64,000 bases of DNA from Malacoraja senta (Eukaryota): positions 14,200,001-14,264,000 of the forward strand of contig CM075991.1 of the NCBI GenBank assembly GCA_038087875.1, written 5' to 3'. Both the position numbers and the translations under genes were made by a program. The notes below the pieces were generated by a model. The model saw only the letters and a list, made by a program, of their open reading frames with translations. It was not told the origin of the DNA and searched no databases. Shown in pieces: positions 1 to 63,376 of the stretch (the stretch's first letter is position 1; each line of letters starts with the position of its first letter).

Positions 1-561
1 TGGGCCGAAGGGCCTGTATCTCTAAACTAAACTAACATACATTCTGAAAGGGGCAGTTTAGTTTAGTTCAAATGCTTAGGAAGGTCATAAGGAATAGGAG
101 TAGAATTAGGCCGTTCGGCCCATCAAGTCTACTCCACGATTCAATGTTCAAGGAGGAACTGCAGATGCTGGAAAATCGAAGGTAGACAAAAATGCTGGAG
201 AAACTCAGCGGGTGAGGCAGCATCTATGTGTGGACAAAATGGGTATTCAATCATGGCTGATCTATCTCTCCCTCCTAACCCCACTCTCCTGCCTTCCCCC
301 CATAACCTCTGACACCCGTACTAATCAAGAATCTATCTATCTCTACCTTAAAAATATCCACTGACTTGGCCTCCACATCCTTCTGTGGCAAAGAATTCCA
401 CAGATTCACCACCCTCTGACTAAAGAAATTCCTCCTCATCTCCTTCCGAAAAGAACGTCCCTTTAATTCTGAGGCTATGTATGACCTCTTGTCCTAGACT
501 CTCCCACTAGTGGAAACATCCTCTCCACATCCACTCTATCCAAGCCTTTCACTATTCTGCT

Positions 562-948
562 GGGAACTGCAGATGCTGGTTTACACTGAAGATAGACACA
601 AAAAACTGGAGTAACTCAGTGGGACAGGCAGCATCTGTGGAGAACACGGACAGGTGACGTTTCGGGTCGAGACTCTTCTTCAGACAGAGTCAGGGGAGAG
701 TGAAACAAGAGCTGTGAAAGGGTACAAAGAACAAATGAATAAAAGATGTGCCCAAGAACAAGCCAGCAACGATGATCAGGAAAAGGCAGAGCGCACAATG
801 GTCTATTGTTGGCTGTGGAAGTGAAAGTCAGCAGGACGACAGTGAAACTATTACGATGACTAGGGTGGCGGGGAGGGACGGAGAGAGGGGACGCAAGGGT
901 TACTTGAAGTTAGAGAAATCAATATTCATACCGCTGGGTTGTAAGCTG
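562..948 (-). mobile_element. Penelope-like element 3' fragment with hammerhead-like core
   Basis: Contains the end of the PLE ORF also seen at 9280-9320 and 22270-22320, plus the shared tail. Minus strand reads CTGAAGA-AGAGTCTCGACCC-GAAACGTC at about 655-685. Confidence 0.75.
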
Positions 949-8894: not shown

Positions 8895-9630
8895 AGTGCC
8901 CCCCCCCCCTCCCCAGGTACTTTCCCCTGCAACCACAGGAGATGCAACACCTGTCCCAATACCTCCCCCCTCGACTCTGTCCACGGACCCCGACAGTCCT
9001 TTCAGGTGAGGCAGAGGTTCACTTGCACCTCCTCCAACCTCATCTACTGTATCCGCTGTTCCAGGTGTGGACTCCTGTACATCGGCCAGACCAAGGGCAG
9101 GCTCAGCGATCGTTTCGCTGAACACCTGCGCACAATCCCCCGAAACCTACCTGATCTCCTGGTTGCTGTAACTCCCCCTCCCATTCCCACACTGACCTTC
9201 CTGTCCTGGGCCTCCTCCATTGTCAGAGTGAGGCCCAGCGCAAATTGGAGGAACAGCACCTCATCTTTCGCTTGGGCAGCTTACACCCCAGCGGTATGAA
9301 CATTGACTTCTCTAACTTCAAATAACCCTTGCTTCACCTCTCTCTCTCTCTAGCTGTCCCTCCCACCCTAGTTCTCTGACTAGCTTCACTGTCCTGAATA
9401 ATATTACTGATTGTATGCCTCCTTGGTACCTTCCACTCAAACAATAATCCATTCTAAATTTTCCTTGATAATTGTCAGCTTTGATCTGTCGTTTTCACAC
9501 CTCGCCCTTCCATTTTCTCCAGACTCCCTCTCCCCTGACTCTGAAGAAGGGTCAGAAACATCATCCATTCCTTCTCTCCAGAGATGCTGCCTGTCCCGTT
9601 GAGTTACTCCGACATTTTATTTCTACCTCC
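8895..9630 (+). mobile_element. Penelope-like element 3' fragment: GIY-YIG endonuclease remnant plus 3' tail
   Basis: FTCTSSNLIYCIRCSRCGLLYIGQTKGRLSDRFAEHLR is a PLE GIY-YIG motif. Degenerate hammerhead core CTGAAGAAGGGTC-AGAAAC at 9541. Confidence 0.9.
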
Positions 9631-10702: not shown

Positions 10703-12537
10703 CCTCCAAACCTGGGATGTGGGAGGAAAGCGGGGCACCCGGAGAAAAGCCATGCGGGTCACAGGGAGAACGTGCAAACTCCACACAGATGCGCCCGTGG
10801 TCCAGACTGAACCCAGGTCTCTGGCGCCGTAAGGCAGCAACTCTAACGCAGCCGGTTGATGTATTATAGTGGGGCATGAAATCTCAGCAGGCTGTTGCTG
10901 CTGCCTTTTCTACTTGTGTCAAGGTATCTGCCCCCCAACAAGTGGTGACACTGTGACGCAGTGGCAGAGCTGCCAACCCACCCTGCCAGAAACCCAGGTT
11001 CGATCCTGACCTCAGCTGCTGCCTGTGCCTCCCCGTGACCCACCTGCGTTTCCTCCGGGTGCTGCCGTTTCCTCCCACACTGTGTACAGAGTATGGGGAT
11101 CACTGGTCGGCATGGACTCGATGGGCTGAAGGGCCTGTTTCCGCGCTGTATCTCTAAACTAAACTAAAAACTAATCAAGCCAGTCAGAATCAGTGGCATT
11201 ACCATGAAGACAAATATCACGTTAGCAAATAATACATTAGTACAAATAGCATTAATATTTCATCAGCCTGAGCTGCTTTCAGCTGGTATTTTACATGTTC
11301 TGTTCTTTGCTCGTATATTAAAAATAAAATGAAGAAGGGTTTCGGCCCGAAACGTTGCCTATTTCCTTCGCTCCATAGATGCTGCTGCACCCGCTGAGTT
11401 TCTCCAGCATTTTTGTCTACCTTTGATTTTCCAGCATCTGCAGTTCCTTCTTAAAAATAAAATGAATTGATGTTAACTTTCCTAGCTGCTGAGGCGGGAT
11501 TTGAACTCTTGTCTCTGGTCCAGTGCCGAAGCCTCTGATTGTGGGTGCAGGACATAACCATTATACCACTGCACCCAGTGCTACATAATAGGGTGGGGGG
11601 GGGGGGTTTAGAGGGAGTTGAGAGCAAGGGGGTTGGAGATAAATGAGAAAGTAGTTGGTGTTTATTTATTCCTTGCTTATGTGGAAATTCATTTTGGTTT
11701 CCTCACTTGGCCTGCACGGTGGCGCAGCGGTAGAGTTGCTGCCTTACAGCGCCAGAGACCCGGCTTCGATCCCGACTACGGGTGCTGTCTGTACGAAGTT
11801 TGTACTGTCTCCCTGTGACCGTGTGGGTTTCCTCCGGGTGCTCCGGTTTCCTCCCACACTCCGAAGACGTACAGGTTTGCAGGTTAATCTGCCTCTGTAA
11901 ATTGTGTGTGGGGATTGCTGGTCTGTTCGGACTCGGTGGGCCGAAGGGCCTGTTTCCGCGCTGTATCTGTAAACTAAACTAAACAACGAAACATTTTGAG
12001 TTCTGGGTTTAAAAGCAGGACTAGGAATCATTGAACCTCTCTCTCTCTCGAGAAGGCTGCAGGGGTTCATCCATTTCAGCTTTTCCACTCTTGAGATTGA
12101 TTTTCTTTTGAGGGTTGTGGGATATGGGAAGTTGGGACACAAGGAACTGCAGATGCTGGTTTACAAAAAAAAATCAGACTGCTGGAGTAACTCAGCGGGT
12201 TGATTGGTCTTATTGAATTGCACAGTCGGTGCGTAGAACTCAATGGCTGTCCCTCTTATTCCTTAGAGGCATCAAGGCATGAGAAATGTTTCCCACTGGG
12301 CTTCTAGTCCCTTGAGTATACAAGATGAAGCTATGTAAAACACCAAAGTGCTGGAGGAACTCAGCGGGTCAGGCAGCATCTGGGGAGGGGAGGGAATGGA
12401 CAGAAGGCGTTTCGGATCTCTAGTCTGAAGGAGGGTCCTGACCTGAAATATTGTCTGCCCGTTCCCTCCACAGATGCCGCCCGACCCGCTGAGTTCCCCA
12501 GCACTTTGTGTTTTTGTCCACGATTGTGGCATCTGCA

Positions 12538-22032: not shown

Positions 22033-22547
22033 TGTTTAAGAAGGAACTGCAGATGCTGGAAAAATCGAAGGTAGATAAAAATGCTGGAGAAACTCAGCGG
22101 GTGAGGCAGCATCTATGGAGCGAAGGAATAGGTGAAGTTTCGGGTCGAGACCCTTCTTCAGACTGATGTGGGGGTGGGGGGGGGGGCGGGAAGAAGAAAG
22201 GAAGAGGCGGAGACAGTGGGCTGTGGGAGAGCTGGGAAGGGGAAAGGGAAAGAAGGAGAAAGCCGGGACTACCTGAAATTGGAGAAGTCAGTGTTCATAC
22301 TGCTGGGGTGTAAACTACCCAAGCGAAATATGAGGTGCTGCTCCTCCAATTTACGGTGGGACTCACTCTGGCCATGGAGGAGGCCCAGGACAGAAAGGTC
22401 GAATTTGGAATGGGAGGGGGAGTTGAAGTGCTGAGCCACCGGGAGATCAGGTTGGTTATTGCGAACTGAGCGGAGGTGTTGGGCGAAGCGATCGCCAAGC
22501 CTGCGCTCGGTCTCACCGATGTAGAGCAGCTGACACCTAGAGCAACG
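22033..22547 (-). mobile_element. TSD-bounded Penelope-like element fragment (GIY-YIG plus tail with hammerhead core)
   Basis: 11-bp direct repeat TCAGGATTAGG at 22022-22032 and 22548-22558. Minus frame reads RCSRCQLLYIGETERRLGDRFAQHLR...MNTDFSNFR*. Minus-strand CTGAAGA-AGGGTCTCGACCC-GAAAC at about 22132-22162. Confidence 0.9.
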
Positions 22548-22904
22548 TCAGGATTAGGGGTCTCCATGATGAGGGGGTGGACCTCTTCTCTCACTGGGTG
22601 GTTGGTGACTCTGTTGAAGTCTCCAACCAGGTGAGCTGTGAAGACCCAAGTCATTGTATATTCTTGGGTCTGATGTTCTCTGACTTTCAAGCGGATGAAG
22701 GGCGATGGGAACCAGGTGGGAAGGTGATTTGGTGTTCTGATGTGTGCTATGAATTCGCTTGGTTTATATCTGCACTGGGTGGCAACACAACATTTAATAG
22801 GAACCCGAGGGGCAACTTTTTCACACAGAGGGCGGTGGGTGTATGGAACAAGATGCCAGAGGAGCGAAGGAAATAGGCAAAGTTTCGGGTCGAGACCCTG
22901 CTTC

Positions 22905-22938
22905 GGTCTGAAGAAGGGTCTCGACCCGAAACGTTGCC
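22905..22938 (+). ncRNA. Minimal type-I hammerhead ribozyme motif (PLE-associated)
   Basis: GGT-CTGAAGA-A-GGGTC/TC/GACCC-GAAA-CGTT-GCC: catalytic core boxes, stem II hairpin, palindromic ACGT in place of stem III, and only a 3-bp stem I. Confidence 0.7.
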
Positions 22939-24175
22939 TATTTCCTTCGCTCCATAGACGCTGCCTCACCCGCTGAGTTTCTCCAGCATTTTTGTCTCCC
23001 TTCGATTTTTCTCCAGCATTTTTGGCTACCTACGAGGAATTTCTTTAGTCAGAGGGTGGTGAATATGTGGAATTCATTGCCACAGAAGGCTGAGGAGGCT
23101 AAGTCAGTGGATATTTTTAAGCAAGAGATTGTCAGATTCTTGATTAGTACGGATATGGGGAGAAGGCAGGAGAATTAGAGATAGATCAGCCATGATTGAA
23201 TGGCGGAGTAGACTTGATGGGGTGAAAGGACTAATTCTACTCGTATAACGTATGAACTTGTGAATAGTTAGCCTTACCAGTGGGGAAGGGCTCCTGTTGA
23301 GGCTAGAATTGGGGCAGGGGTTGGGTGTTGCATGTTTAGAGGAACTTACAGAGTTAGTTAGTTTAGAGATACAGTGGGCAAAGGGACACTTCGGCCCACC
23401 AAGTCCGCGCTGACCAGCGAGCCCCGCCCACTAGCGCTACCCTAAACACTAGGGACAATTGTCAGAGGGCAGTTAACCTACAAAGCTGCACTTCTTTGGA
23501 ATGTGGGAGGAAACCTGAGCACCCAGAGAAAACCCACGTTGTCACAGCGAGAACGTGCAAACACCACACAGACAGCAACCGTGGTCAGGATCTAACCCGG
23601 GTCTCCGGCACGGTAAGGCAGCAACTCTACCGCTGCCCTAGAAGCAGAAGTGAGAGTGGGAATTCCACTGAGTTACTCCAGCTATTTGTGTCTTATCTTG
23701 TCTAAACCAGCATTTGCAGTTCCTTCCTACACATTCACCGAAGCGTCGTTTACACCAAAGATAGACACAAAAAGCTGGAGTAACTCAGGCAGCATCGCAG
23801 GAGAGAAGGAAGGGTGACGTTTCGGGTTGAGACCCTTTTTCGGACTGGCTTGAGTTGGGCTGTGACGCAGGCTTCAACGTTGTACATGAGCTGGAGGCTG
23901 TGGTGAGTGGAAACCAGGAGTGCAGCCAAGATTGGTGCATTAGTCACACCTGGAGCAGGCAGACAGACAGGCACGGATGACAGCTTACATTCCTGGCATC
24001 TGTCACATCACTGGCAGTGCGTAAGGACATAACACTGGAACTGTGAGCTGTGTGACGTCAGGTATTTACATTTGGATTCATTCCTGTAAGTGTTGGAGAT
24101 GTGGTCATTAGTCACCTGCGGAATGTGCTGTGTCCAGAGATTGTCACAGGTTGAATCTGGTGGGGTTGTGGCTAA

Positions 24176-24206
<31 letters not shown>

Positions 24207-24560
24207 CGTGCGTGTGTGTGTGTCTGCGCGCGTGTGTGTGTCTGTGCGCATGTGTGCGTGCGTGTGTGTGTCTGCGTGTCTGCGTGTGTGTGTGTGCGTG
24301 AGTGTGTCTGTGTGTGTGTGTCTGCGCGCGTGCGTGTGTCTGCGCGTGTGTGTCTGTGTCTGTGCGTGTGTGTGTGTGTCTGTGTGTGCGTGTCTGCATG
24401 TGTGTCTGTGTGTGCGTGCATGTGTGTCTGCGTGCATGTGTGTGAATGTGTGTGCGCGGGGGTGTGGGTGCTTGAGTCAGCGTCTGCGTGAGTGAGTGTG
24501 TATATGCGTGCTTAAGTGTGTGTGCGCGTGCGCATTTGCACGTGTGTGTGCACTTGTCTG
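24176..24560. repeat. (TG)n/(CG)n microsatellite with Z-DNA potential
   Basis: Alternating purine-pyrimidine tract seen directly. Confidence 0.95.
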
Positions 24561-25464
24561 TACACACTAACCCCTTGAGTGGTCCTGACCCATCTACCTC
24601 ATTGGAGAGCTTCGGTCTATCTTTAATCTGACTTTTATTGGACTGTATTTTGTATTAAAGATTGTTCCCTGCATACTGTACAATGTGGATGGTTTGATTG
24701 TAAACATGTATAGCCTCTTAGCTGAACGGATAGCATGCAATAAGAATGCTTTTCACTGTACCTCGGTACACGTGACTAATAAATTAAACCAAACTACACT
24801 AGCAGTGAGGCATCCTGCCAGCAGCTAAGTCAAGAGCACTGTGGTGCAGCGGTAGAGTTGCTGCCTTACAGCGTCTGAGACCCGGGTTCGAGCCTGACTA
24901 CGGGTGCTGTCTGTATGGAGTTTGTACGTTCTCCCCGTGACCCCCTGGGTTTTCTCCGGTTTCCTCCCACACTCCAAAGACGTACAGGATTGTAGGTTAA
25001 TTGGCTTTGGTAAAGATTGTGAATTGCTCCTCCTGTTAGGATGGCTCTAACGTTCGGGGTGATCGCTGGTTCGGCACGGACTCGATGGGCCGAAGGGCCG
25101 GTTTCCACGCGGTATCTCTAAACTAATCTAAACTGAAAGTGTAGGAAGGAACTGCAGATGCAGGTTTACACCCACAAAATGCTGGAGTAACGGGACGGGG
25201 CAGGCAGCATCATTGGGTGATGTTTTGGGTCGAGACACCTCTTCAGACTGAAGATAGACGCAAAAAGCTGGAGTCACTCAGCCTGTCATACAGGCAGCGT
25301 ATCTGGAGAGAAGGAATGGGTGATGTTTTGGGTCGAGCCCCTTCTTCAGACTGGTTAGGGATAAGGGGAAGGGGAGATAATAGACAATGATGTGGAGAGA
25401 CTGAAGCAGACTATCCAATCCAATCCAACTTTAATTGTTAAGCACTTTAAAACAACCAATGTTG

Positions 25465-26020: not shown

Positions 26021-26341
26021 GAATAAACAACACATGATAAACAGACAACATAACACAACATGACGGTGTCGACACAGCAAAGGCACGGTCCCCTCTGAGC
26101 TTCAAATAAAAAGCACAACACACTATTAGAGATTCAACATGAACCAAAGCTCCATTACATTCGTCGGGGAGTAGGGCTGGATCTGGGGGTAGAGGGCGAT
26201 TGTTCGCACTAACGGAGGTGTTTGTCTTTTGCAGCAGGTCCGTTTCCAGCTGAGAGCTTCAGACGGTGACGGAGCGAGCCGATGGGACGGGCGCCCAGAT
26301 GGTGATAGAACCGGCTGTGGGCGAGCAGACGCGGTAGTGGA

Positions 26342-26432
26342 ATGATCAGCTGCGTTGACCTGGTGTGCTGGGCTCTGCTTGGCCTTCTCTCCCTCTCCAC
26401 CGCACGACCTGCTCTAACCCTTCCAGAGCAAG
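26342..26432 (+). CDS. FGFR1: FGFR1 first coding exon (signal peptide), MISCVDLVCWALLGLLSLSTARPALTLPEQ; exon acceptor at 26234 or 26237
   Basis: 91-nt ATG-to-donor segment ending CAAG|GTAGGG (phase 1). Hydrophobic signal peptide ending TARP.TLPEQ closely resembles the human FGFR1 N-terminus ([30 protein letters not shown]). Upstream pyrimidine tract plus GCAGCAG acceptor. Not present in the ORF track; found by reading the sequence. Confidence 0.9.
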
Positions 26433-30367: not shown

Positions 30368-30556
30368 CATAACAGCAGGTAGATAACAGTTTAAAGGTAA
30401 CTGGTTAAAATCAGAACATACTGATTTAAGCTAAATGGCTACTACACTGCCTGTCCTGCTGAGTTACTCCAGCTCGTTGTGTCCATCTTATTCCAACTTT
30501 GCTGACTTCACCTTGCACTAAACCTTATTCCCTTCTCATGTATCTGCATGCTGTAA

Positions 30557-46390: not shown

Positions 46391-46467
46391 ATCTAAGTAC
46401 TGTGTCAGATATTCAGCGCCCTGCCCTAACCAAGTGTGTGTTCTTGTCTCCCCCCCCCCCCCTACAG

Positions 46468-46589
46468 ACTGACCCTGGGGAAGCCTCTGGGCGAGGGGTG
46501 CTTTGGACAAGTGGTGATGGGAGAAACCATGGGCCTGGACAAGGAGAAGCCCAGCAGGCCGGTCACTGTGGCCGTCAAGATGCTGAAAG
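46468..46589 (+). CDS. FGFR1: FGFR1 kinase exon, Gly-rich loop to VAVK lysine: (R)[40 protein letters not shown]
   Basis: cctacag| acceptor and AAAG|GTGAGA donor; 122 nt; GxGxxG and VAVK motifs of FGFR kinases. Confidence 0.97.
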
Positions 46590-46675
46590 GTGAGACACTT
46601 CACAGCCGCGACGTACAGAGCCAGCCGGGGGATCCAAGTCCACAGCTCCCATCAAACGTGGCCACACTGGTCCAG

Positions 46676-46965
46676 CTGCCCCACTGTACGAGGCAATTCA
46701 AGAGTCCTCCCGAGTTTCCCACTGATTCGAGCTCGGAGAATGCCCGTAGCGGGTCCGTAGGAGTTCGTGGATGTCTCGTACGAGTAACGGTAGGTACTCG
46801 GGAAATCCGGTAAACCCGTGGCGTTTTTTCAACACTGAAAAATGTCCCCGAGTAAAAAAACTACTCGTGATGAAAAAAACGACCCGCTACGGACATTCTC
46901 CGAGTTCGAATCAGGGGAAAACTCGGGAGGACTCTTGAATTGCCTCGTACAGTGGGACAGGCCCT
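46676..46965. mobile_element. PIF/Harbinger-type MITE
   Basis: Inverted arms CCCACTGTACGAGGCAATTCAAGAGTCCTCCCGAG / CTCGGGAGGACTCTTGAATTGCCTCGTACAGTGGGACAGGCCCT followed by TAA. Confidence 0.8.
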
Positions 46966-47287
46966 TAACAGCGCCAGAGACCCGCTTCCATCCTGAGTAC
47001 AGGAGCTGGAGTAACTCAGCGGGACAGGAGAACATGGATAGGTGACGCTTTCTTCACACTGATCTGCCTGAAGAAGGGTCTGTCGTCAATCTAAAGGATG
47101 GTGTCGCCCCGAAACGTCCCCTATCCATGTTCCCCAGAGATGCTGCCTGACCCGCTGAGTTACTCCAGCACTCTGTGTGCTTGGCAATAACTGGTGGTCT
47201 TTCTCGGAGCAGGCGGTGAGTTGGGAGGGTGAGCGGTAGGGAATGCTGTTGGAATCTCCAGCATGCTCCCGACCAGTGCCGGTTTAA

Positions 47288-48595
<1,308 letters not shown>

Positions 48596-49502
48596 TGATG
48601 GCTCCGTGAGTCATTGTTTTTCAAGGCCCTCCCATCCCACCTGCTATTTCAGTGAGGCTGATTTCAGCCTGGGGGAACAGGGACTTTGTGTTGCATGCTA
48701 AACCAGTCAGCAGAAAGACTTTATGTGTGATTGCAATCCAGCCCGTCCACAGTGTACAGATACAGGATACAAGGGCAGTGGAAGCGGAGTCTTTCCATAC
48801 TTTTAAGAGCCGTCGGAGATGGAAGTGTGAGCGAGGGGTTACTAGCAGTTCTGGTGGAGCAGCAGAGTGGAGGTTGCAGACACACCACATAAGGCTGTGG
48901 AGGCCAAGTCAGTGGGTATTTTTAAGGCAGAGACAGATAGATTCTTGATTAGTACGGGTGTCAGAGGTTATGGGGAGAAGGCAGGACAATGGGGTTAGGA
49001 GGGAGAGATAGATCAGCCGTGATTGAATGGCGGAGTAGACTTGATGGGCTGAATGGCCTAATTCTGCTCCTATCACTTATGACCTTATGACAAACCACGA
49101 CCGTACTGAGTGACAAAGCAGGCCAGAGGTGGAGTTCTCTCCCTTCCATTGACACCATCCACACCTCACGCTGCCTCTGAAAGGCCAGCAGCATCATCAA
49201 TGACCAGTCTCACCTCTTCTCCCCTCTCCCATCAGGCAAGGGGGACAGAAGTGAGAAAACGCACACCTCCAGATTCAGGGATAGTTTCTTCCCAGTTGTT
49301 ATCAGGCAACAGAACCATCCTACCCCAGCCAGAGAGCAGTGCTGAACTACTATCTACCTCACTGGTGACCCTCAGGGGTAGGCCATTTAGAACAGAGACG
49401 AGGAAACACGTTGTTGTGAGTCTGTGGAATTCTCTGCCTCAGAGGGCGGTGGAGGCCGGTATATCTCTGGATACTTTCAAGAGAGAGCTAGATAGGGCTC
49501 TT

Positions 49503-50421
49503 AATTGAATTGAATGCTGTTTATTGTCATTCAAGCCTAGGCTTGAACGAAATATAATTCCTACAGTTTTGTTTTACATTACAAAAAAAAACACAAGACC
49601 CGCACTTAACACAGTTGACATAAACATCCATCACAGTGAGTCTCCAACACCTCCTCACTGTGATGGAAGGCAAAGTCTTATCTCATCCCTTTATTCTTCA
49701 CCTGCGGTCCAGCAGTCCAACTGCAGCGTCTAGGCGAACTGGGGCTCCGGTGTTAAAGCCCCCGGCGGACGATGGTAAGTCCCGTGGCCATTCAGCCACA
49801 CCGGGCGATGCTAGGCCCCGGCTCCACGCCCTTCAAACCCCACGGTTCAAGCAGTCCAACTGCAGCGTCTAGGCGAACTGGGGCTCCGATGTTAGAGCCC
49901 CCGGCGGGCGATGGTGAGTCCCGTCCGTGTCCTTTGAACCTCGCAATTCCAGCGGGAGAAGTTGCCGTTGCGGGAGCTCTGAAAGCCAACTCCCACCAGG
50001 GACCTGGAGCTCCCGATGTTCCTGTTCACCGGGCCCACAGCCGGAGCTTCCGAAACTCCAAAATCGGGTCGCAGCCGAGCGCCACCACAGCTCTCCCCGC
50101 TCCAAAGTCGGCCAGCTCCGTGATGTCATGTCCCCAGGCTCCGCGACTGGAGCCCTCAGGTTGGTCCCGGCCGGAGGCAGCCGCCGGCTCCACAATGTTA
50201 GGCCCAACGACATCGGAGATCCGACAGGGAAAAAGTCGGGTCCCCGTACAGGGAAGAGATTAACGGTTTCCCCCACATCCCCCCCTCCACCCCCCACATA
50301 TACACAGCTAAAAAATAATAAAAACTAAGCTCCAGACATACATTTAACAAGACAAAAAATAAAAAAAAGACGGACGACTGAAGTTGAGCCGCTGCCGTTA
50401 GGCACCGCCACTCCCACCTGC
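49503..50421 (-). mobile_element. Non-coding retroelement with Rex1/Babar-type 3' tail, inserted in a CR1 3' end
   Basis: Minus strand ends ATTTCGTT-hairpin-AATGACAATAAA plus (ATTCA)n; its ends are homologous to 61011-61868. Confidence 0.7.
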
Positions 50422-51131
50422 ATAGCGGAGTCAGGGGATATGGGGAGAAGGCAGGAACGGGGTACTGATTGGGGATGATCAGCCATGATCACATTGAATG
50501 GCGGTGCTGGCTCGAAGGGCCGAATGGCCTGCTCCTGCACCTCTTGTCTGTTGTCCTTGATCAGACTTTGCTGGCTTTACCTTGCACTAAACATTATTCC
50601 CTTCTCATATACACTGCGAATGGCTCGACTGTAATCTTTCCACTGACTGGATAGCACGCAACAAACGCTGTTCACTGTACCTTGGTACACGTGACAATAA
50701 ACTGATCTGAATTAGTTTAAGCACCATTGCGTAGGAAGGAACTGCAGGTGCTGGTGTAAATCGAAGGTAGACACAAAATGCTGGAGTAACTCAGCGGGAC
50801 AGGCAGCATCTCTGGAGAGAAGGAATGGGTGACGTTTCGGGGGGCGACCGTTCTTCAGACTGAACACCATTACCCCTGATCTATGATACGATCGAACATT
50901 ATTTATCCCAGGAGGGAAGTTGATCTGCCAGCGGTCCTAAAACACATGAAACATGAATTAGAATGAGGGGTGGAAAGGCTTGGGGGATGTGCAAGGATTG
51001 GGGGGGGGAGGGGGGAGTCAGTCTCAGTCTACCCCATGACAGAAAGGGGAGGTTGTAAAGCTTGCTAGTCACAGGGAAGAAGGGTCTGTGTGAGTGTGGT
51101 GCGTCGATTTGACTGGGATGTTCCTGTGCAG

Positions 51132-51322
51132 GTCCTCTGTACGTCATCGTTGAGTTTGCCTCCAAGGGCAACCTGCGTGAGTACCTGCGCGCCCGCCGAC
51201 CGCCTGGCATGGAATACTGCTACAACCCGACCCACATGCCCAATGAGCAGCTCTCCTTCAAAGACCTGGTGTCCTGTGCTTACCAGGTCTCCAGGGGCAT
51301 GGAGTACCTGGCCTCGAAGAAG
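51132..51322 (+). CDS. FGFR1: FGFR1 kinase exon, hinge and kinase insert: (G)[63 protein letters not shown]
   Basis: tgtgcag| acceptor and GAAG|GTAAGC donor; 191 nt. Kinase insert EYCYNP is diagnostic of FGFR1 versus FGFR2/3/4. Confidence 0.97.
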
Positions 51323-52232
51323 GTAAGCTTCTGCTCCGTACATTTAGGATACGATACGATAGAACTTTATTCATCCCAGGAGGGAAATTGGCCTGCCAAC
51401 GGTCATAAAACACAAGAAGGTACATGGCATTAAAGTGACCAGTGGAAAGGATCGGGCATGTGCAAAGATTGGGGAGGGGAGACAGTCTCAGTCTACCCCC
51501 TTCGTCAGAGGGGGAGGAGTTGTACAGTTTGATAGCCACAGGGAAGAAGGATCTCCTGTGGTGTTCTGTGCTGCATCTTGGTGGAACCAGTCTGTTGCTG
51601 AAGGTGTGACCAATGTCATGGAGGGGGTGAGCTGTATTGTCCAGGATGCTCTGCAGTTTGAGGAGCATCCTCCCCTCCAAGACCAACCTCCCGTGAATCC
51701 AACTCCAGCTCCGCCCCCAGGACGGAGTCGGCCTTCCTGATGAAGAACCATCCGTAACTCCAGCAGCACAGTCGTACAGCGGTAGAGTTGCCACCCTACA
51801 GCGCCAGAGACCCTGGTTCGATCCCATCTACAGATGCTGTCTGTACGGAGTCTATACTTTCTCCCCGTGACCACGTGGGTTTTCTCCAGGTGCTCCTGTT
51901 TCCTCCCACATTCCAAAGACATGCGGGTTTGTAGGTTACTTGGCCTTCCGTCTATTGTGAATTGTCCCTGGTGTGTAGGATAGTGCTAGTTGGTGATCGT
52001 TGGTCGGTGTGGGCTCGATGGGCTGAAGGGCCTGTTTCCACACTATATCTCAAAGTCTAAAGTCCAAACCTGTTGTTTACCCCCTGTAATTCTCCCCATC
52101 GTGTGTATATTGGACCATTGAACCACAAAGATGCCCATCTGACATGTCTACCCATAGGGTGGGCACCAGGCATTGGAGCCAACCCAAGATGGCATCTGGG
52201 ACTTCAGGCTTAGTTCTGGTTTTTGCCCAATA

Positions 52233-53064
52233 TAGTAAACCCTTGCTATTAGGGGTCTCTTACTAACGTGATTTGGGTAGAGTGGACGGATCTACCGACC
52301 TTCACCGCCGGTGCCACCCCCGGCCCGCACCGCCGCCCCGGCCACTTCCAGACCGGGCCCGCCGCCGCCGGCCCACGCACCTCCCTTGCCGCGTCCAGGT
52401 CCCAACCCTCACCGATCCTCCAGTCCACGACCACCGACTCCGCCGATCCTCGCCTCTCCCCCAGCCACCAGCCAGCCTGGGCCGTCAACTCACCCGGATT
52501 CCAGGCCCAGTTCCAGACCTAGAGTCTGAAGATAGTCGACCCAAAACATCAGCTGTCAATGTTCTCCAGAGATGCTGCCTGACCCGCTGACTTACTCCAG
52601 CACTTGGTGTCCTTGTGTGTATTAGACATCATCTGCAGTTCTTTGCTTCCACTACTTTAGTTTTGTTTAGAGATACAGCGCGGAAACAGGCCCTTCGGCC
52701 CACCGGGTCCACGCCGACCAGCGATCCCCAAACATTAACACTATCCTACACCCACTAGGGACAATTTTTACATACACCAAGCCAATTAGCCTACAAACCT
52801 GTACGTCTTTGGAGTGTGGGAGGAAACCGAAGATCCCGGAGAAAACCCACGCAGGTCACGGGGAGAACGTACAAACTCCGTACAGACAGCACCCGTGGTC
52901 GGGATCGAACCCGAGTCTCCGGCGCTGTAAGGCAGCATCTCTACCGCTGCGCCACCGTGACCGCCCGTACTTACACAATGATAATCCTTTACTCAGTTAT
53001 AGCGGACACTCAGCAATAACGGACACCATTGCCCCCACTGCTCCGTCATAACCAGGGTTTACTG
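52233..53064. mobile_element. Possible Tigger/pogo-like non-autonomous element with nested Penelope tail and SINE
   Basis: TA-TAGTAAACCCT at the left and AGGGTTTACTG-TA at the right; could instead be two unrelated fragments. Confidence 0.4.
52656..52966 (-). mobile_element. Full-length HE1-like V-SINE
   Basis: Reverse-complement A/B boxes, V-domain and tail. Confidence 0.92.
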
Positions 53065-55191
53065 TATTAGGTTTTTTGATCATTGATTTTTTTTTGTGCT
53101 TATTTCTTACATTATTTATAGAGTACTGTGTTTACAAACCTGTAGTGCTGCTGCAAGTAAGAATCTCAATGTTCCATTACGGTACATATGACAAATAAAT
53201 CACTCTTAACTAGACAAGACATCTTGGACTGGCACAAGTTTTTGGACAAAGACCAACAAAGGCTGCTTCTAGATAAATAACTCTGCTCTGCGGCGAATTG
53301 GGCCTGTGGATGTATAATGAATGCAGTGTGTTGAAGATAAATCTACTTATTACTCGTACATCTGCCAATCCCTCATCTCCTAAAAAATATTTTTCTATTT
53401 CATTTTTGTCACCACATTGTAATCCGCGCAGTCCAGATGTCCACGGGCCTTGTCGTGAAGGCTTCTGTTTAAATTATTCTCATTTATTTCAGTCTATATT
53501 GGGTGATCGGGCCTTGCCATGAAGGCTTCTGTCTAGATTGTTCTCATTTATTTCAGTCTATATTGGGTGATCCCGTGAGGCTGCATGGCCTAGTTCTAGG
53601 CTATTTTTCACACGAAGAGGGACTGGGAACTGTGTATATCACAGTAGGTTAACCTATGATGAGCGTTTGTCGGCACTGGGCCTGTATTCGCTGGAGTTCA
53701 GAAGAATGAGGGGGGACCTCATTGAAACATACAGAATAGCGAAAGGCCTGGATAGAGTGGATGTGGAGAGGATGTTTCCACTAATGGGAGAACCTAGGAC
53801 TAGAGGTCATAGCCTCAGAATTAAAGAATGTTCTTTTAGGAAGGAGATGAGGAGGAATTTCTTTAGTCAGAGGGTGGTGAATCTGTGGAATTCATTGCCA
53901 CAGAAGGCTGTGGAGGCCAAGTCAGAGGATACATTTTGAGGCAGAGATAGATAGATTCTTGATTAGTACGGGTGTCAGAGGTTACGGGAAGAAGGCAGGA
54001 GAATGGGGTTAGGAGGGAGAGATAGATCAGCCATGATTGACTTGATGGGCCGAATGGCCTAATTCTAGGCCTTGATTAGTACGGGTGTCAGAGGTTACGG
54101 GAAGAAGGCAGGAGAATGGGGTTAGGAGGGAGAGATAGATCAGCCATGATTGAATGGCGGAGTAGACTTGATGGGCCGAATGGTATTATTCTACTTCTAT
54201 CACTTATGACCTTGTGATTTATGCATCTTTCTTCCACGCAGTGCAATGTGCAGGGCCTGGCCAGGACGCTGGACTGCAATGGTCAGCTCAAGTTCAGTTT
54301 AGAGATACAGCGCGGTAACAGGCCCTTCGGCCCACCGAGTCCATGCCGACCAGCGATCTCCGCACACTAGTTCTAACCTACACATACTAGGGACAACTTA
54401 GAACAATTTACAATGACCCTCCCACCCCTAACATCTTACCCCTCGTTGTACTAAACGACAAAGAATACAACAATCCAAACCGCCCAGCCTCTCTCAGTTT
54501 AATTTAGTTACAGCATGGAAACAGGCCGTTCAGCCCACCAAGTCCATGCCAACCATAGTTCAATGTTATCCCACCTTCTCATCCACTCCCCATACACCAG
54601 GGGCTACAAGCTACAAGCCCGCACGTCTTTGAGAGGAAACCGGAGCACCCGGAGGAAACCCACAGGGTCCCAGGGAGAATGGGCAAACTCCACATCGACA
54701 GCACCCGAGGTCGGAATTGAACCTGGGTCTCTGGCGCTGAGAGGCAGCGGCTCTACCCGCTGCACCACTGTTCCACCCTCTTGATAGGACAACCCTCTCA
54801 ACCCAGAATGGTCCTTAGTAAATCGCTTCAGGTCTGCGTCCAGACATCCATTTATGAAGTCACTTACAGAGTGTTCGAGGTGTGGCCTCACCAACAAACC
54901 CTCATCTTCAACTCCAACCCCTCACAATTAAAGCCAATATACAAGGATTGACATGACTCGAGAGCCTGAACTGTGCAGGCTAGGGCTTTAATCCTCGGAG
55001 AGCTGGAGGCTGAGGTGTATAGAATCATGTGGGGAGTAAATAGGGTGAATGCACCACCTTTTATCCAGGGGAAGGGAATCAAAGACCAGGGAACATGAGG
55101 TTTAAGGTGAGACAGGCAAGATTTAATAGGAACCTGAGGGGCAACATTTTCATTCAGAAGGTGGTGGGTATAAGGACCAAGCTGCCAGAGA

Positions 55192-55225
55192 AGTCTGAAG
55201 AAGGGTCTCGATCCGAAACGTCACC
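55192..55225 (+). ncRNA. Minimal hammerhead ribozyme motif (PLE tail)
   Basis: AGT-CTGAAGA-A-GGGTCTCGATCC-GAAA-CGTC-ACC. Confidence 0.62.
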
Positions 55226-57435
55226 CATTCCTTCTCCCCGGGGATGCTGCCTGACCTGCTGTGTTACTCCTTCCAACATTTTGTGTCTACCTTTGATTTA
55301 AACCAGCATCTGCACTTCTTTCTGACTCGAGCTGCCAGAGGAGGTAGAGGCAGGTACGATAACCACATCTCAAAGACATTCGGACAGATACATGGGTGTA
55401 GGAATGTTTTAAAGGGGTATGGGTCGAATGCAGGCACATGGACTCGTTAAGATGGAGCATCTTGGTCGGTATGGGCGAGTTGGGCCGAAGGGCCTTTTTC
55501 CGTGCTGTGTGATTATGGTTCTAGAACGTTCCCCTTGTTAACCAGTTGTGCTCCTACCTGCAAACCCTCAGTGATTCATACGCCTCTGCCCCTCTGATCA
55601 TCTCTCACTTGCCGTCTCTCCCTGTTTAGATCTTAATCTGGATTTTGATTCCTCTTACTGAGTGCATGATGCCCCATTTCCCATGTTAAACTCCATTTAG
55701 TTTAGTTTAGAGATGCCACGTGGAATCAGGCCCTTCGGCCCACCGACACCATGCTAACCATAGATTACCCATTCACACTGGTTCCATGTGATCCCATTCT
55801 CTACAAACGGTGGGGGGAGGAGGGGGGGGGCAGTTAACCTTTGGAGTGTGGGAGGAAACCGGAGCACCCGGAGGAAACCCACGCGGTCAGTGGGAGAATG
55901 TGCAAACTCCACACACACACACACACACACACGATCGAACCCGGGTCCCTGGCGCCGTGAGGCAGTGGCTCTACCCACCCCGACACTTTCCCGAAGAAAT
56001 CTGTACTTAGTTTAGAGATACAACATCACACAGAGATGTGATAATGTCCGATAAAGGGCTGGCATACTTCAATCTTCTGGCTGACTGGCTTCGCTGTATT
56101 TTGTTTAGAGGTACAACGCGCTCCACCCACTGTGCCACCTGTTTGCCAGCCACTTGAGAAAGCCCCCTTCTCACTGGCATGTTGTGCCACACTCTTGGTA
56201 TGCAGCCATCTCCATACGCACCCGTCAGGAAATGGAGAAGGTGTTAGCATGGACGGGGTGTTAGTATAGCTGTCTGACCCACTACCCTGTCCCCCTCATA
56301 CCTTACAATGGAAAGAAAAGTGCCATTATGCACTTTGGTGAGAAAAGGAAAACAGCAAAATATTTTTAAGATGATGAGGGGACTGGGAGATGTGTGGATT
56401 CAGACAGAATCAATATTGGGCCCAGCCACCAATTAGTCTATGTTATTCTTTATTGCAGAAGAGGTTTACTGAAAGAGTAATGTATGTGCAGCATTAGTTC
56501 TGCCACATCTGGAGTACTGTACACTGTTTTGGATTCCATCCTTAGAAAAGGATTTACTTGACTTGAGGGAATGCCGCGGAGAGAGACTGGCTGGAAAGAG
56601 TGTCTGGATTTTCGGTTGAAACGATTAAACTAAAAATCACTTGGGTTGCTTTGCTGCGAGGTTGAAGAGTTTAGAATCTGCAGATCACGTTTCCGAGTGT
56701 TGTCTCTTTAAAAGAGGTGGAATTTCTTCTCCCAAAGGGCTGTGAATCTCTGGAATGATCTCACATGGTGACCATTGAGTCTATCCAAAGGTGAGATTGA
56801 TTGATTTGGACAACGGCCATTGTTCAAATTGGAAGAAGAGGGGATGCATTCCTGAAACGCATTCCATGGTGCAGATGTTCATAAAAGCAGACGGCAAGGC
56901 ATATGGTCCCACGCAAGGAAACGGCACGCTTTTCATCTCAGCGAGATATGGCGTGGATCCCTAATGTTCAAGGACGTTACCGTGAAAACCCATGAATCAG
57001 TGTTGATTGTGTGCAGGAGATGTGGAGATCGGGCGGGAAAGTGCGTTTGGGAATTGTGCTTTGAAGAGGGTGCAGAATGCAGAAGAGAGGCGTCACGGTG
57101 GCACAGAGGTAGAGTTGCTGCCTTACAGCGGTTGCAGCGCCAGAGACCCGGGTTCGATCCTGACGACGGAGTTTGTACGTTCTCCCCGTGACCGCGTGGG
57201 TTTTCACCGAGATCTTCGGTTTCCTCCCACACTCCAAAGACGTACAGGTCAATTGGCTTGGTAGATGTGCAAATTGTCCCTAATGTGCGTAGGATTATGT
57301 TAATGTGCGGGGATCGCTGGTCGGCGTGGACTTGGTGGGCCGAAGGGCCTGTTTCTGAGCTGTATCTCTAAACTAAATGAAAATATAAAGATAGACCAGA
57401 AGGCAGAATGACATTTCGGGTCAGCTCCCTTCTGC

Positions 57436-57466
57436 CTGAAGAAGGGTCCCGACCCGAAACGTCACC
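57436..57466 (+). ncRNA. Minimal hammerhead ribozyme motif (PLE tail)
   Basis: CTGAAGA-A-GGGTC/CC/GACCC-GAAA-CGTC-ACC; stem I poorly paired. Confidence 0.58.
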
Positions 57467-58034
57467 TATCCATGTTCTCCTGAGATGCTGCCTGACCCAC
57501 TGGGGTACTCCAAAGATAGACACAAAATGCTGGAGTAACTCAGCAGGACAGGCAGCATCTCTGGAGAGAAGAAATGGGTGAAATTCCCCACAATTTGTAT
57601 AAACAAGCATCTGCTGATCTTTAATTCTACATCACTAGAATGCTGCCTGGATTAGAGGATATTAGCTATAAGGAGAGGTTAGGCAAACTTAGATTGTTTT
57701 CTCTGGAACGCCAGAGGCTGAGGGGACATCTGATCGGAGCATATAAAACTATGAGGCAATAAACAGTCAGAACCTTATTCCTAGGTCAAAGGGGATAGCT
57801 TTAGGGTGAGAGGGGCAAAGTTTAAAGGAGACAAGACCAAGGGGGACCCGTTGGGTCCCGTCCCCTCAAAGCGCGGTTGCGGGGGGGGGGGGGGCGGCCT
57901 GCGGCGTCACACACACACAAACCACCCCCCACACACACACTAACCACCCCCTATATTAATATTATTAATTCTCTCCTTTTACCCCATCCCCGCCCTATCC
58001 ACTCACGCATAGCCCCCAACTCACAGGCGTGTTT

Positions 58035-58420
58035 AGAGGGGGAGGGGGAGTAGAGAGAGAGGGCAGAGACAGAGAGAGAGGGGGCAGAGACAGAGAGAGT
58101 GACGCAGAGACAGAGAGAGGGGCAGAGTCAGAGTGAGTGGGGCAGAGACAGAGAGAGGGGGCAGAGACAGAGAGTGACGCAGAGACAGAGAGAGGGGCAG
58201 AGACAGAGGGAGTGGGGCAGAGACAGAGGGAGGGGGAATAGAGAGAGGGGGCAGAGACAGAGAGAGTGACGCAGAGACAGAGAGGGGCAGAGACAGAGGG
58301 AGTGGGGCAGAGACAGAGGGAGGGGGAGTAGAGAGAGGGGGCAGAGACAGAGAGAGTGACGCAGAGACAGAGAGGGGCAGAGACAGAGTGAGAGGGGCAG
58401 ATACAGAGAGGCGGGGGGAG
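58035..58420. repeat. GA-rich minisatellite (GGGGCAGAGACAGAGAGAGTGACGCAGAGACAGAGA)n
   Basis: Seen directly. Confidence 0.9.
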
Positions 58421-58628
58421 AGGAGCAAAGTTTAAAGGAGATGTGCAGCATCTCGCGAGCTGCGGTCAGCAAGTCCACGGTTACATAAGGTCATAAGGAA
58501 TAGGAGTAGAATTAGGCCATTCGGCCCATCAAGTCTGCTCTATCTCTCCCTCCTAACCCCATTCTCCTGCCTTCTCCCCATAACCTCTGACACCCGTACT
58601 GATCAAGAACCCTCGGTTACCATGATGA

Positions 58629-58856
<228 letters not shown>

Positions 58857-60454
58857 TAGAGTTGCTGCCTCACAGCACCAGAGACCCGGGTTCAATCCTG
58901 ATAACGGGTGCATTCTCCCTGTGACTGCCTGGGTTTTCTCCGGGTGCTCCGGTTTCCCCCCACACTCCAAGGACTTGCAGGTTAATTGGTCTCTGCAAAT
59001 TGCCCCTAGTGTGTAGGATCAAAACTGGGATAACGTCAAACTAGTGTTCCGATGATCGTTGGTCGGTACAGATTCAATTCAAGTTTATTGGTCACATACT
59101 CAATTATACAGGTATAACCAGTAGTGAAATGCTTAAGTGCCTGTCCAGTTGTGCATGGTTCCCCACTTACACATAACCCACATAAAACAATACCCACATA
59201 TAACACATAGCCCATAAATATACCACATAACAAGTAGTGCTGTTACAAGCAAAGTGACAAGTGCCGTGTAACACCTGTGATAACAGCATGTTCCATCCAG
59301 TTCAGTCCCATGTGTGTGTGTTTGATGGTGGCGGGGCGGGGGGTTTGGGCGGGGGTGCAGGTGCTGGTGAGGAGGGTGGGGAGGGTTGGGGGGCTGGGGG
59401 AGGGGGGGGCGGCAACACTCCGTCCTCGTTCAGCAGTCTCATGGCCTGGGGAAAGAAACTCCTCCTCATTCTCTCCGTGTTGGCCCTGAGCAGCCGGTAG
59501 CGTTTCCCTGAGGGCAAGTTTCAGTGGGCCGAAGGGCCTGCTTCCACACCAATTTGCATTTGGACCTCCTTCTTTGTTCATTTTTTAATATTTTCACTAC
59601 CCTTGGTTATAAATATTTCCGAAGCATCTGTTGGAAAACTCCTCATCCTTGTGTCACTCCCTGGTCTATCTCTGTCTGAAGTCTCATAAGTTCATCGGCG
59701 ATAGGAGCAGAATTGGGCCATTCGGCCCATCAAGTTACGGGCCGTCACGGTGGCGCAGGGATTGAGTTGCTGTCTTACAGTGAATGCAGCGCCAGAGACC
59801 CGGGTTCGATCCCGACTACGGGCGCTGTCTACGGAGTTTGTACGTTCTCCCCGTGACCCGCGTGGGTTTTCTCCGATATCTTCCGTTTCCTCCCACACTC
59901 CAAAGACGTACAGGTTTGTAGGTTAATTGGCTTGGTAAATGTTTTAAAAAAATTGTCCCCAGTGGGTGTAGGATAGGTTAATGTGCGGGGATCACTGGTC
60001 GGCGCAGACCTGGTGGGCTGAAGGGCCTGTTTCTGTGCTGTATCTCTAAACTAAACTAAACTAAACTCGACATAAAAAGTCGACTCCGCCATTCAATCAT
60101 GGCTGATCTATCTCTCCCTCTTAACCCAATTTTCCTGCCTTTTCCCCATAACCCCTGACACCAATACTAATCAAGAATCTTTCTATCTCTGCCTTAAAGA
60201 TGTCCATTGACTCCGGCCTCCTCCGGCCCCATCCGTCCCTCCCATCTCCAGGCTCCCACAGTGCTAGTTAAAGGACAGATGTACTTTGTATAGGAGGTCA
60301 TTCAAAGAAGGTTCATTGGGCTGATTCTTGTGATGAAAGACGAGCTGCAGCCTCACAGCGCTGGAGACCCAGGTTCAGTCCAGAACTCGAGTGCTGTCTG
60401 TGTGGAGTTTGCACGTTCTCCCTGTGGGTTCCCTCCGGGTGCTACGTTTTCTTG

Positions 60455-62520
60455 AGGATGTGACAAGTAATATGGATGAAGGAGAGCCAGTGGATGTGGT
60501 GTACCTGGACTTTCAGAAAGCCTTTGTTAAGGCCCCGCACAGGAGATTAGTGTGGTAACACACATGGTATTGGGGGTAGGGTATTGACACGGATAGAGAA
60601 TTGGTTGGCAGACAGGAAACAAAGAGTAGCAATAAAGGAAGACCCTGTCAGAATGGCAGGCAGTGGCGAGTGGAGTGCCGCAAGGCTCGGTGCTGGGGCC
60701 GCAACTATTTACAATATATATTAATAATTTAGCTGATGGAATTAAAAGTAACACTAGCATATTTGATGATGACACAAAGCTGGGTGGCAGTGTGAACTGC
60801 GATGAGGCTGCAGGGTGACTTGGACAGGTTGAGTGAGTGGGCAGATGCAGTATAATGTAGATAAATGTGAGGTTATCCACTTTGGCAGCAAGAACAAGGA
60901 GGCAGATTATTATCTCAATGGTGTCAGATTAGGAAAAATGAAAGTGCAACGAGACCTGGGGGTCCTTGTTCATCAGTCACTGAATGTAAACATGCAGGTA
61001 CAACATGCAGTGGGCGGCGCAACTTTCGTCTGCAGCGGCCTCTGCAGTCCGTCTGTCTTTTTATTATTTTTGTCTCGTTTTTATGTAGTTTTTTATTCTT
61101 TTTTTTGTCGGGGTATGTGTGTGGGGGGGTGGGAGGGGGAAACTTTGAAATCTTTCCGCTGCACGGGAGACCCGACCTTTTCTTTGTCGGGTCTCCGTTG
61201 TCGTTGGGGCTGGGCAACGTGGAGCGGCCTCCAGCAGGAACGACCTGGGGCTCCCGTGGAGCTGCGGACTACTCATCGTCGCGGGGCTGGCCGAGTCCGG
61301 AGCGGGTGGAGCTGTGGTGGAGACAATCGCTGTTGCGACCCGACCGCCGGAGATTCGGAGGCTACAACCGCGGGTCTGGCGGACGGCAAACACTGGAAGC
61401 CCGCGGGTCCCCTGGTGGGAGACCGCTTTTCGGGGCTTCCGCAGCGGCGACTTCTCCCGCCCGAGTTGCGGGGTTGAAGAGCACCTGGAGCGGGGCTTTA
61501 TCCCCCCGCGCGGCTTGGAATGGCCACCGGACTTTGCGGGTGCGCGCCGGGGCTCTAACACCAAGACCCGGTGCGCGACCTTGCATCACCCGGCGTGGCT
61601 TTAATGGCTGCGGGACAATCACCATCGCCCGCCGGGGGCTTTGACTTTGACTCTGACATCGGGGGGGAGTGCAGTGGAGAGATACGTTTTTTTGCCTTCC
61701 ATCACAGCGCTGTGATGGATGGATGTGTAAATTGTGTTGTGTCTCGGGTCTTCTTCGTTTTGTAATGTATGGCTGCAGAAACGATATTTCGTTTGGACCT
61801 CAAGGGGTCCAAATGACAAATTTGTCCAAAAGACAAATAAATTGAATTGAATTGAATTGAATTGATTGAAAGCTAATGGCATGTTGGCCTTCATAACGGG
61901 AGGATTTGGGTATAGGAGTAAAGAGGTTCTTCTACATTTCTACAGGGCCCTGGCGAGACCACATCTGGAGTATTGTGTGCAGTTTTGGTCCCCTAATTTG
62001 AGGAAGGACATTCTTGCTATTGAGGCAGTGCAGCGTAGGTTTACAAGGTTAATTCCCGGGATGGCGGGACTGTCATATGCTGAGAGAATGGAGCGGCTGG
62101 GCTTGTACACTCTGGAGTTTAGAAGGATGAGAGGGCATCTTATTGAAACATATAAGATTGTTAAGGGTTTGGACACGCTAGAGGCAGGAAACATGTTCCT
62201 GATGTTGGGGGAGTCCAGAACCAGGGGCCACAGTTTAAGAATAAGGGGTAAGCCATTTTGAACGGAGACGAGGAAACACTTTTTCTCACAGAGAGTTGTG
62301 AATCTGTGGAATTCTCTGCCTCAGAGGGCGGTGGAGGCGGGTTCTCTGGATGCTTTCAAGAGAGAGCTAGATTGGGCTCTTAAAAATAGCGGAGTCAGAG
62401 GATAAGGGGAGAAGGCAGGAACGGGGTACTGATTGGGGATGATCAGCCATGATCACATTGAATGGCGGTGCTGGCTCGAAGGGCCGAATGGCCTACTCCT
62501 GCACCTATTGTCTATTGTCT
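60455..62520 (+). mobile_element. CR1 LINE ORF2/3' fragment interrupted by a non-coding insertion
   Basis: VDVVYLDFQKAF, SGVPQGSVLGP and ...MQVQHAV | KANGMLAF...LEYCVQFWSP; frameshifted; (ATTGTCT)n tail. Confidence 0.92.
61011..61868 (+). mobile_element. Non-coding retroelement with Rex1/Babar-type 3' tail
   Basis: Ends ATTTCGTT-hairpin-AATGACAA...AATAAA(TTGAA)n and splits the CR1 ORF2. Confidence 0.7.
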
Positions 62521-62969
62521 TACCTGCCTGCACATGATCCATATCCTTCCACTCCCTGCCTATCCATGTGCCTATCCAAAAGTCTCTTGTACGCCACTAT
62601 CGTATCTGCCTCCTCCACCACCACCCCTGGCTGCTCGCTCCATCCTCTGTGTGAAAGAACGTAACACGCACATCTCCTTTAAATTTGCCCCAGCCACGGG
62701 AGGTAGTTGGGGCAGGTAACGGCGTTTAGACAGGTGCATGGATAGGAAAGGTTTAAGCTCTGGGTCAAATGGCGGCATGTGGGACCAGTGTATGTTGGTC
62801 GGCATTGGCAGGTTGGGCCGAAGGGCCTGTTTCCACGCTGTTTGACTCTAGGACTCTCACCTTAAACCAACGCCCACCGGTATTTGGCATGACCATCCTG
62901 GGGGAGAAAGGCTCTGACTGTCTACCCTGTCTGTGCCACTCACTGTTGTATGTATGGGTGCCTTGCCCT

Positions 62970-63376
<407 letters not shown>

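Follow-up and report, generated by a model that had tools for sequence, protein, structure and literature searches.

The 64-kb stretch of the Malacoraja senta genome analysed here (64,000 nucleotides, hereafter the window) carries exons of an FGFR1-like gene together with many short repeats that contain what looks like a hammerhead ribozyme. The question is whether such copies, above all the focal one at 22908, could cut the pre-mRNA of the host gene, or whether they are remains of a mobile element. Our analysis favors the second answer. With a probability of roughly 85%, the repeats are 3′ stubs of a Neptune-like Penelope element with a minimal hammerhead, and the focal copy is likely inert and neutrally decaying, its core being held shut, according to folding predictions, in a 44-bp hairpin with its own inverted arm.

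The repeat family and its hammerhead

The first box of the motif plus the start of stem II was matched 22 times in the 64-kb window with at most two mismatches, versus 2.38 expected, and none of 100 shuffles gave as many; for the second motif half, 35 matches stood against 2.97 expected, and no shuffle reached that number. Searching the window with a single sequence yielded 56 family matches, and an HMM seeded with 15 well-preserved copies, applied to this one 64-kb sample, found 57 (minus strand 34, plus strand 23), which cover 7.8% of the window and are mostly only about 100–125 nt long. All copies named in a previous sequence-only reading of this DNA were recovered at their places and on their strands by the pattern and HMM searches. 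Its statement that the motif is the most abundant short repeat amounts to a near tie, however, with 47–52 matches versus 42–52, and more bases, in another short repeat family. Altogether, 62% of the window lies under self-repeats, and a LINE-type reverse transcriptase (RT) fragment of 347 aa is present at 5337–6377 (−), accompanied by many shorter pieces (Pfam RVT_1, E 5e-18).

In the focal copy, C3–A9 occupies 22908–22914, followed by the bulged A (22915), stem II (22916–22919/22924–22927), G12–A15.1 (22928–22931), the ACGT palindrome (22931–22934) and H17 (22935). The motif had been described as a hammerhead core with an intact stem II, and the focal copy does agree with the published consensus at every defined position (supplement Fig S3 of PMC4209133), but stem II is better read as 4 bp with a 4-nt loop than as 5 bp with a 2-nt loop. 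Across the family, the unpaired base between 9 and 10.1 is A in 24 of 30 copies, and the four pairs of stem II, which is closed by G10.1–C11.1, are kept in 27/32, 29/33, 29/31 and 25/32 copies. Helix I has 2 bp family-wide: its first two positions pair in 21/25 and 21/24 copies, while the third is an A-C mismatch in 16 of 21 and pairs in only three of the 21, the focal copy included. Consensus match, ORF linkage and pairing counts together uphold the identification as a minimal type-I hammerhead of Penelope origin, with ACGT as the palindrome and 2–3 bp in helix I; judged by sequence and position, the skate motif is a Penelope-like element (PLE) minimal hammerhead. Two further candidates for structural evidence were discarded. 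A change from C-G to T-A in the palindrome of copy 12422 is not covariation, because two CpG decays yield the same outcome, and lengthening helix I by splicing at the CAG before C3 fails, as judged by eye, with candidate donors near the ORF stop adding no pairs.

The tail downstream of the ribozyme, e.g., at 50731–50830 (−), has two invariant blocks 3′ of the cut site which, by prediction, pair into a stem enclosing a small inner hairpin; one strand of this stem is repeated in the family tail. Stem and tail repeat are candidates for a protein-binding or RT-start signal, as far as the folding model goes. One of the invariant blocks contains an ATG which opens a short reading frame.

Two ORF ends, at 8916–9322 (+) and 22547–22272 (−), code for a Cys-rich linker plus a GIY-YIG-type domain. 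Both are matched by a stingray protein (E-values 1e-43 and 4e-36), and in longer relatives RT-like sequence lies upstream; the Pfam GIY-YIG scores are weak (19.3 and 15.9 bits, below the curated cut-off of 22.6). The third ORF-linked copy (about 660) has the same ORF terminus and 3′ UTR. Thus, the link between motif and GIY-YIG ORF end stands in that three copies follow a Neptune-like ORF, but they do not follow it directly, as had been stated: they lie 107–216 nt past the stop. All three are damaged, with 9541 lacking the 3′ arm of stem II, 22132 lacking ACGT and 660 having a stem II mismatch. The linker motif C-x4-C-x2-C, found in the ORF 8895–9296 and in relatives, points to Neptune/Nematis PLEs. 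The Cys-rich linker of Neptune is common to Nematis (PMC8557442), and the label Neptune-like for the skate element is taken from the linker, not from a tree, so that it does not separate the two. Within the 64-kb window, neither an RT core nor a full-length element nor a 5′ pLTR was found; exact-pattern scans of metagenome and viral contigs gave 0 loci each, and a PDB search with a PLE relative gave 0 matches.

Table 1. Positions of the features discussed, counted from the first letter of the window.
Feature	Position	Strand	Remarks
Penelope-like 3′ end	560..934	−	last ORF codons, 216-nt 3′ UTR, hammerhead with stem II mismatch, tail
5′-truncated Penelope-like element	8916..9630	+	Cys-rich linker and GIY-YIG end (one frameshift), ~215-nt 3′ UTR, hammerhead with stem II deleted
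Sense copy truncated at U4	11330..11452	+	no C3, no helix I 5′ strand; flanked by A-rich target duplication
5′-truncated Penelope-like element, second subfamily	22036..22547	−	GIY-YIG end, 107-nt 3′ UTR, hammerhead without palindrome, tail
Focal left arm, inverted, shortened	22861..22904	−	95% complementary to 22910–22953; predicted pairing with entire ribozyme core
Focal right arm, Penelope-like 3′ end (hammerhead and ~85 nt)	22905..23019	+	tail interrupted by 30-nt local duplication (22978–23035)
Focal minimal hammerhead motif	22908..22937	+	C3–A9, bulged A, 4-bp stem II with tetraloop, G12–A15.1, ACGT, H17, helix I 3′ strand
FGFR1-like exon with ATG (signal peptide)	26235..26432	+	preceded by splice acceptor at 26234/26235; coding part 26342–26432
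Five FGFR1-like kinase exons	46466..63373	+	near 46470, 47786, 51131, 58650 and 63302; define host strand and introns
Only intact sense copy without inverted arm	55192..55320	+	has tail and 11-nt target duplication; FGFR1 intron between exon ending at 51322 and exon starting near 58650
Third core-intact sense copy, C3 at 57436	57409..57512	+	2.1–1.1 pair missing; inverted arm 57409–57433

Position of the copies in the host gene

The exon at 51131–51322 shares 100% identity with FGFR1-like proteins from Leucoraja erinacea and Amblyraja radiata, and by sequence the host gene is the skate FGFR1 locus. Between the ATG exon and the first kinase exon (26433–46466), no match at any identity was obtained for the exons of residues 32–488 (Ig, transmembrane and juxtamembrane parts), and a 200-N assembly gap lies at 43902–44101. 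FGFR1 is therefore incompletely assembled here, the missing exons having probably been lost in the gap.

Among the 29 rows that span the core (one is a misaligned flank), three are intact, namely 22908, 55195 and 57436. These are the copies which had been called near-intact and sense, but 57436 lacks the 2.1–1.1 pair; 11331, called a weaker sense copy, is indeed without C3 and the 5′ strand of helix I. The copies had further been placed in the FGFR1 introns. This holds for 55195 and 57436, which lie 2.2 kb apart in one coding-region intron, but the focal copy is situated 3.4 kb upstream of the ATG exon and counts as intronic only if it is preceded by a non-coding first exon. Three runs from three studies, all probable RNA, provide contigs that enter the window at 26233 and stop at 26420–26432, carrying 79–221 extra upstream letters which do not fit 24600–26232. 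Just before the ATG exon these runs have no depth, while run X1, whose kind is not on record, is continuous there, like DNA; RNA status is an automatic guess throughout, and one run was flagged as probably DNA. In view of the extra letters, the acceptor and the drop in depth, a non-coding first exon is likely to be found further 5′, which would probably place the focal copy in a 5′-UTR intron. Such an exon could in principle also lie within 23030–24600. A CpG scan of 1–26000 revealed no island marking a promoter. Downstream of the ATG exon, 29001–31000 is CpG-rich (observed/expected 1.35 and 0.98). One contig of run X1 is without 15 nt at 26302, in the 5′ UTR part of the ATG exon, possibly an allele.

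Insertion, decay and predicted folding

Head-to-head arrangements occur at 13 loci, which hold 28 of the 57 matches; a 14th (57409–57464) was seen by the inverted-repeat search only. The tail is present on one arm in 11 of the 13 (10 by motif test, one by HMM coverage) and on both arms in none, with a partner arm that ends too early to be scored in three loci. Flanking words of at least 9 nt are shared at 7 of 18 units, delimited by hand, versus 18 of 306 mismatched pairings, and four of the seven are whole head-to-head pairs. As target duplications flank whole pairs, a pair represents one insertion event. Inverted arms, one-sided tails, palindromic junctions and duplications of 8–10 bp have been described for PLEs (PMC8557442, PMC3846280), and the skate copies show this standard insertion anatomy of EN+ PLEs: an inverted 5′-truncated arm, a one-ended tail and target duplications. 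A 44-nt inverted repeat (95% complementary; 22861–22904/22910–22953) has the focal copy as its right arm, and 57436 is likewise accompanied by an inverted arm. For the focal unit, with its shortened left arm, no target duplication was found, and its flanks resemble pieces of two different LINE-like repeats. The focal unit (22860) and the 55195 copy (55191) both border on a LINE-like 3′ repeat, at almost the same point of that repeat. Another head-to-head unit, at 10415–10700, has a left arm in which a 34-nt segment, from stem II to just past the cut site, occurs about three times; it is flanked by a 13-nt duplication. In contigs of three runs, loose ends with mixed flanks occur at 25139, which is a sharp family-wide 3′ end.

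At the other end, 17 of the 57 matches begin within six bases of the ribozyme 5′ edge (e.g., 50862, 55192, 27201 and 52523) and four more do so ambiguously, while eight run into the 3′ UTR, 16 begin further in, three begin near the cut site and nine are unclear; these classes were set by hand, divergent 3′ UTRs could hide some longer copies, and many of the 5′ ends are fixed by target duplications and inversion junctions. Several inversions join the ribozyme 5′ edge to the 3′ arm of stem II via 3–4 complementary bases (12418/12422, 28117/28119, 42289/42292, 43709/43715). The sequence at the 5′-edge hot spot resembles both an initiator and a 3′ splice site consensus, and the hot spot may be a start site, a 3′ splice site or an RT stop. 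In Drosophila, the Penelope intron ends just before helix I (PMC4209133).

By analogy with anole Poseidon, the element RT would use uncleaved RNA and start some 65 or 100 nt 3′ of the cut site, copy through the ribozyme and often stop at its 5′ edge. The cDNA end may then snap back at a few complementary bases, producing the inverted arm. Folding of the cDNA end predicted no stable snap-back hairpin, so it is from the junction sequences only that this step is drawn. An uncleaved template RNA would leave copies which span the cut site (PMC11167929), as seen in the skate, where only 3 of 57 begin near it. The hammerhead of the active parent would likely work only in tandem transcripts and with help from the element protein, and once copies are inserted, CpG decay would strip G12 or the ACGT palindrome from most of them.

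Excess conservation of the core was looked for in the inserted copies. Over all changes, the non-CpG core has varied less than the tail (20/334 vs 325/2627, p = 0.0004), a whole-tail figure that includes subfamily-diagnostic columns. When only rare changes, seen in one or two copies, are counted, the rates are 17/334 (5.1%) for the core and 99/2627 (3.8%) for the tail (p = 0.23; the misaligned 5′ part of four rows was left out and edge columns were trimmed). Thus, no excess core conservation exists in the window sample after setting subfamily differences aside, an outcome which the sequence-only reading had itself listed as speaking against its proposal, and we infer that the better conservation over all changes reflects constraint on the parent elements. 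An earlier comparison of the core with hand-picked invariant tail blocks (6.0% vs 5.8%, p = 0.89) is circular and was given up in favor of the rare-change test. At the two CpGs within the ribozyme, 17/75 and 20/90 cells show a change, almost always the one that deamination predicts, and all 13 core and palindrome letters are kept in 6 of 28 copies versus 4.7 expected from independent decay. Deletions in stem II recur (8309–8328, 9540–9562 and 63946–63975), and two of them fuse the GAA of the first box to that of the second. Regarding orientation, there are 14 sense and 16 antisense copies 3′ of the ATG exon (p = 0.86), i.e., no sense depletion, and 9 sense and 18 antisense copies upstream of it (p = 0.12). 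The intact copies are all sense to FGFR1 (3/14 vs 0/15, p = 0.10), which counts against the inert reading.

The focal region folds into one hairpin of −92.2 kcal/mol (z −11.1, 0 of 200 shuffles), and opening the core is predicted to cost 41 kcal/mol in the focal copy, 19–21 kcal/mol at 57436 and 11–13 kcal/mol at 55195. As the inverted arm is transcribed first, G5–G8 are predicted to be paired before the ribozyme is completed; in the folding of the growing focal transcript this is already the case once the RNA reaches 22920. Association into a double hammerhead, compared with two monomers, comes out at +0.2 to +3.5 kcal/mol at 1 M, versus −3.1 for the bare ACGU duplex. Because nearest-neighbor energies take no account of Mg2+, protein or tertiary contacts, and the folding had no active minimal hammerhead as a positive control, only the ranking of these values is reliable. 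Two of the intact copies, the focal one included, are thus predicted to be right arms of head-to-head hairpins which bury the core. As its inverted twin is predicted to fold it shut, the focal copy probably persists as an inert remnant rather than as a switch that cuts FGFR1 RNA.

Competing explanations

The sequence-only reading had proposed that sense copies transcribed as part of the FGFR1 pre-mRNA dimerize via ACGT and cut the intronic RNA without help. Three sense copies with complete cores exist, two of them neighbors in one intron, and dimeric cleavage of PLE hammerheads has been published (PMC4209133; review PMC6765202). However, the published dimers and trimers cleave only weakly at 10 mM Mg2+ and the monomers not at all (PMC4209133), and the skate family combines a helix I of 2 bp with unfavorable dimer energetics. 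Only 3 of 29 cores are intact; two of these are predicted to be sequestered, one of which lacks the 2.1–1.1 pair besides, and the opening costs apply to all three. Nor do the cores carry a signal of selection or the sense copies one of depletion. We therefore regard unaided cleavage as highly improbable and consider this proposal not sustained. Cleavage might instead be assisted by a protein: that of a live Penelope element, expressed, e.g., in the germ line, might bind the stem-loop downstream of free copies such as 55195 and fold the hammerhead, so that introns are occasionally cut in trans. The hammerhead of anole Poseidon needs the element protein to cleave (PMC11167929), and 55195 retains the core, the 2-bp helix I and the downstream tail region. 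Nevertheless, its downstream stem-loop has several changes and a 4-nt insertion, the Poseidon study, in its RNA-seq part, saw no ends at the element's own cut site (PMC11167929), and the window contains neither a sign of a live skate element nor a selection signal. Protein-assisted cutting is thus very unlikely, and so is the idea that rare free intact sense stubs like 55195 are cut in vivo when Penelope protein is present. If it were true, skate introns would hold a genome-wide layer of protein-switched ribozymes which break pre-mRNAs such as that of FGFR1 upon transposon expression, and a demonstration of protein-assisted intron cutting would establish a new route from transposon to host pre-mRNA.

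Intronic inverted repeats are ADAR substrates, and it may be the hairpin rather than the ribozyme that matters: head-to-head units would form near-perfect pre-mRNA duplexes of 30–90 bp, which could be A-to-I edited or diced. The number of head-to-head loci and the z-score of the focal hairpin speak for this, as do the best matches of the window to Rfam miRNA models, which are sub-threshold, lie on head-to-head hairpins and microsatellites, and were rejected as miRNA genes. Yet either strand can fold into these hairpins, for which no sign of conservation is seen; even edited hairpins might thus lack any function, and we hold a role for the hairpin to be very unlikely. Finally, the resemblance to a hammerhead might be coincidental, the motif being a conserved terminal protein-binding sequence. 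An Rfam scan of the window returned no hammerhead family among 44 matches up to E = 10, and the family copies of the window show no clear two-sided covariation in stem II. Against this, the boxes, the bulge, G10.1–C11.1, the palindrome and the position in the pLTR all fit the published consensus, and subfamily variants keep stem II pairing through G-U; coincidence is next to negligible as an explanation. The reading as stubs of a Neptune-like Penelope element is accordingly preferred, and decay together with predicted sequestration shows why most genomic copies cannot act. With the junctions mapped genome-wide, ideas on the termination of PLE cDNA and on second-strand priming could be tested.

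Comparison with known systems

A literature search brought up no mention of this skate family; the retrozyme preprint (bioRxiv 10.64898/2026.07.22.740005) or Lunse et al. 2016 may already cover cartilaginous fish. That preprint describes hammerhead-bearing non-LTR retrozymes, found in the one chondrichthyan it sampled, which resemble the skate stubs in being non-autonomous, PLE-derived and equipped with a type-I hammerhead. However, retrozymes are tandem arrays with at least two complete motifs, whereas the skate copies are single or head-to-head. A tandem non-LTR retrozyme was ruled out here, since G12 is missing from both units of the sole head-to-tail pair of the family (25147–25353 on the minus strand, antisense to FGFR1).

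The RT of the anole Poseidon element PAc (Frangieh et al., 2024, PMC11167929) initiates at two internal sites which define the tail, and insertion does not depend on cleavage by the hammerhead. PAc and the skate family are alike in having the hammerhead upstream of two 3′ end positions that define the tail, and in copies which span the cut site. PAc, on the other hand, belongs to another clade, its ORF starts in stem II and biochemical data exist for it, while the skate family is described here from its sequence. With Neptune-clade PLEs, the skate element shares the C-x4-C-x2-C linker before a C-terminal GIY-YIG as well as 5′ truncation, an inverted arm, a one-sided tail of about 30–40 nt and target duplications.

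The closest comparison for the motif itself is the metazoan PLE minimal hammerhead. Cervera and De la Pena (2014; PMC4209133) reported thousands of motifs per genome in fish, coelacanth and frog, as dispersed single copies and as close opposite-strand pairs; the supplementary alignment of that study, in the part consulted, includes no cartilaginous fish. The skate motif has the same core boxes, the bulge at 9/10.1, G10.1–C11.1, the palindromic 15.2–16.2, no helix III and the same place at the PLE 3′ repeat. It differs in that both helices, with 4 bp in helix II and 2 bp (a U-A or U-G pair among them) in helix I, stand at the short, weak end of the range, and the cases of a 2-bp helix I listed for metazoan minimal hammerheads are G-C pairs, unlike those in the skate. 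Skates are thereby added to the animals whose Penelope elements carry minimal hammerheads.
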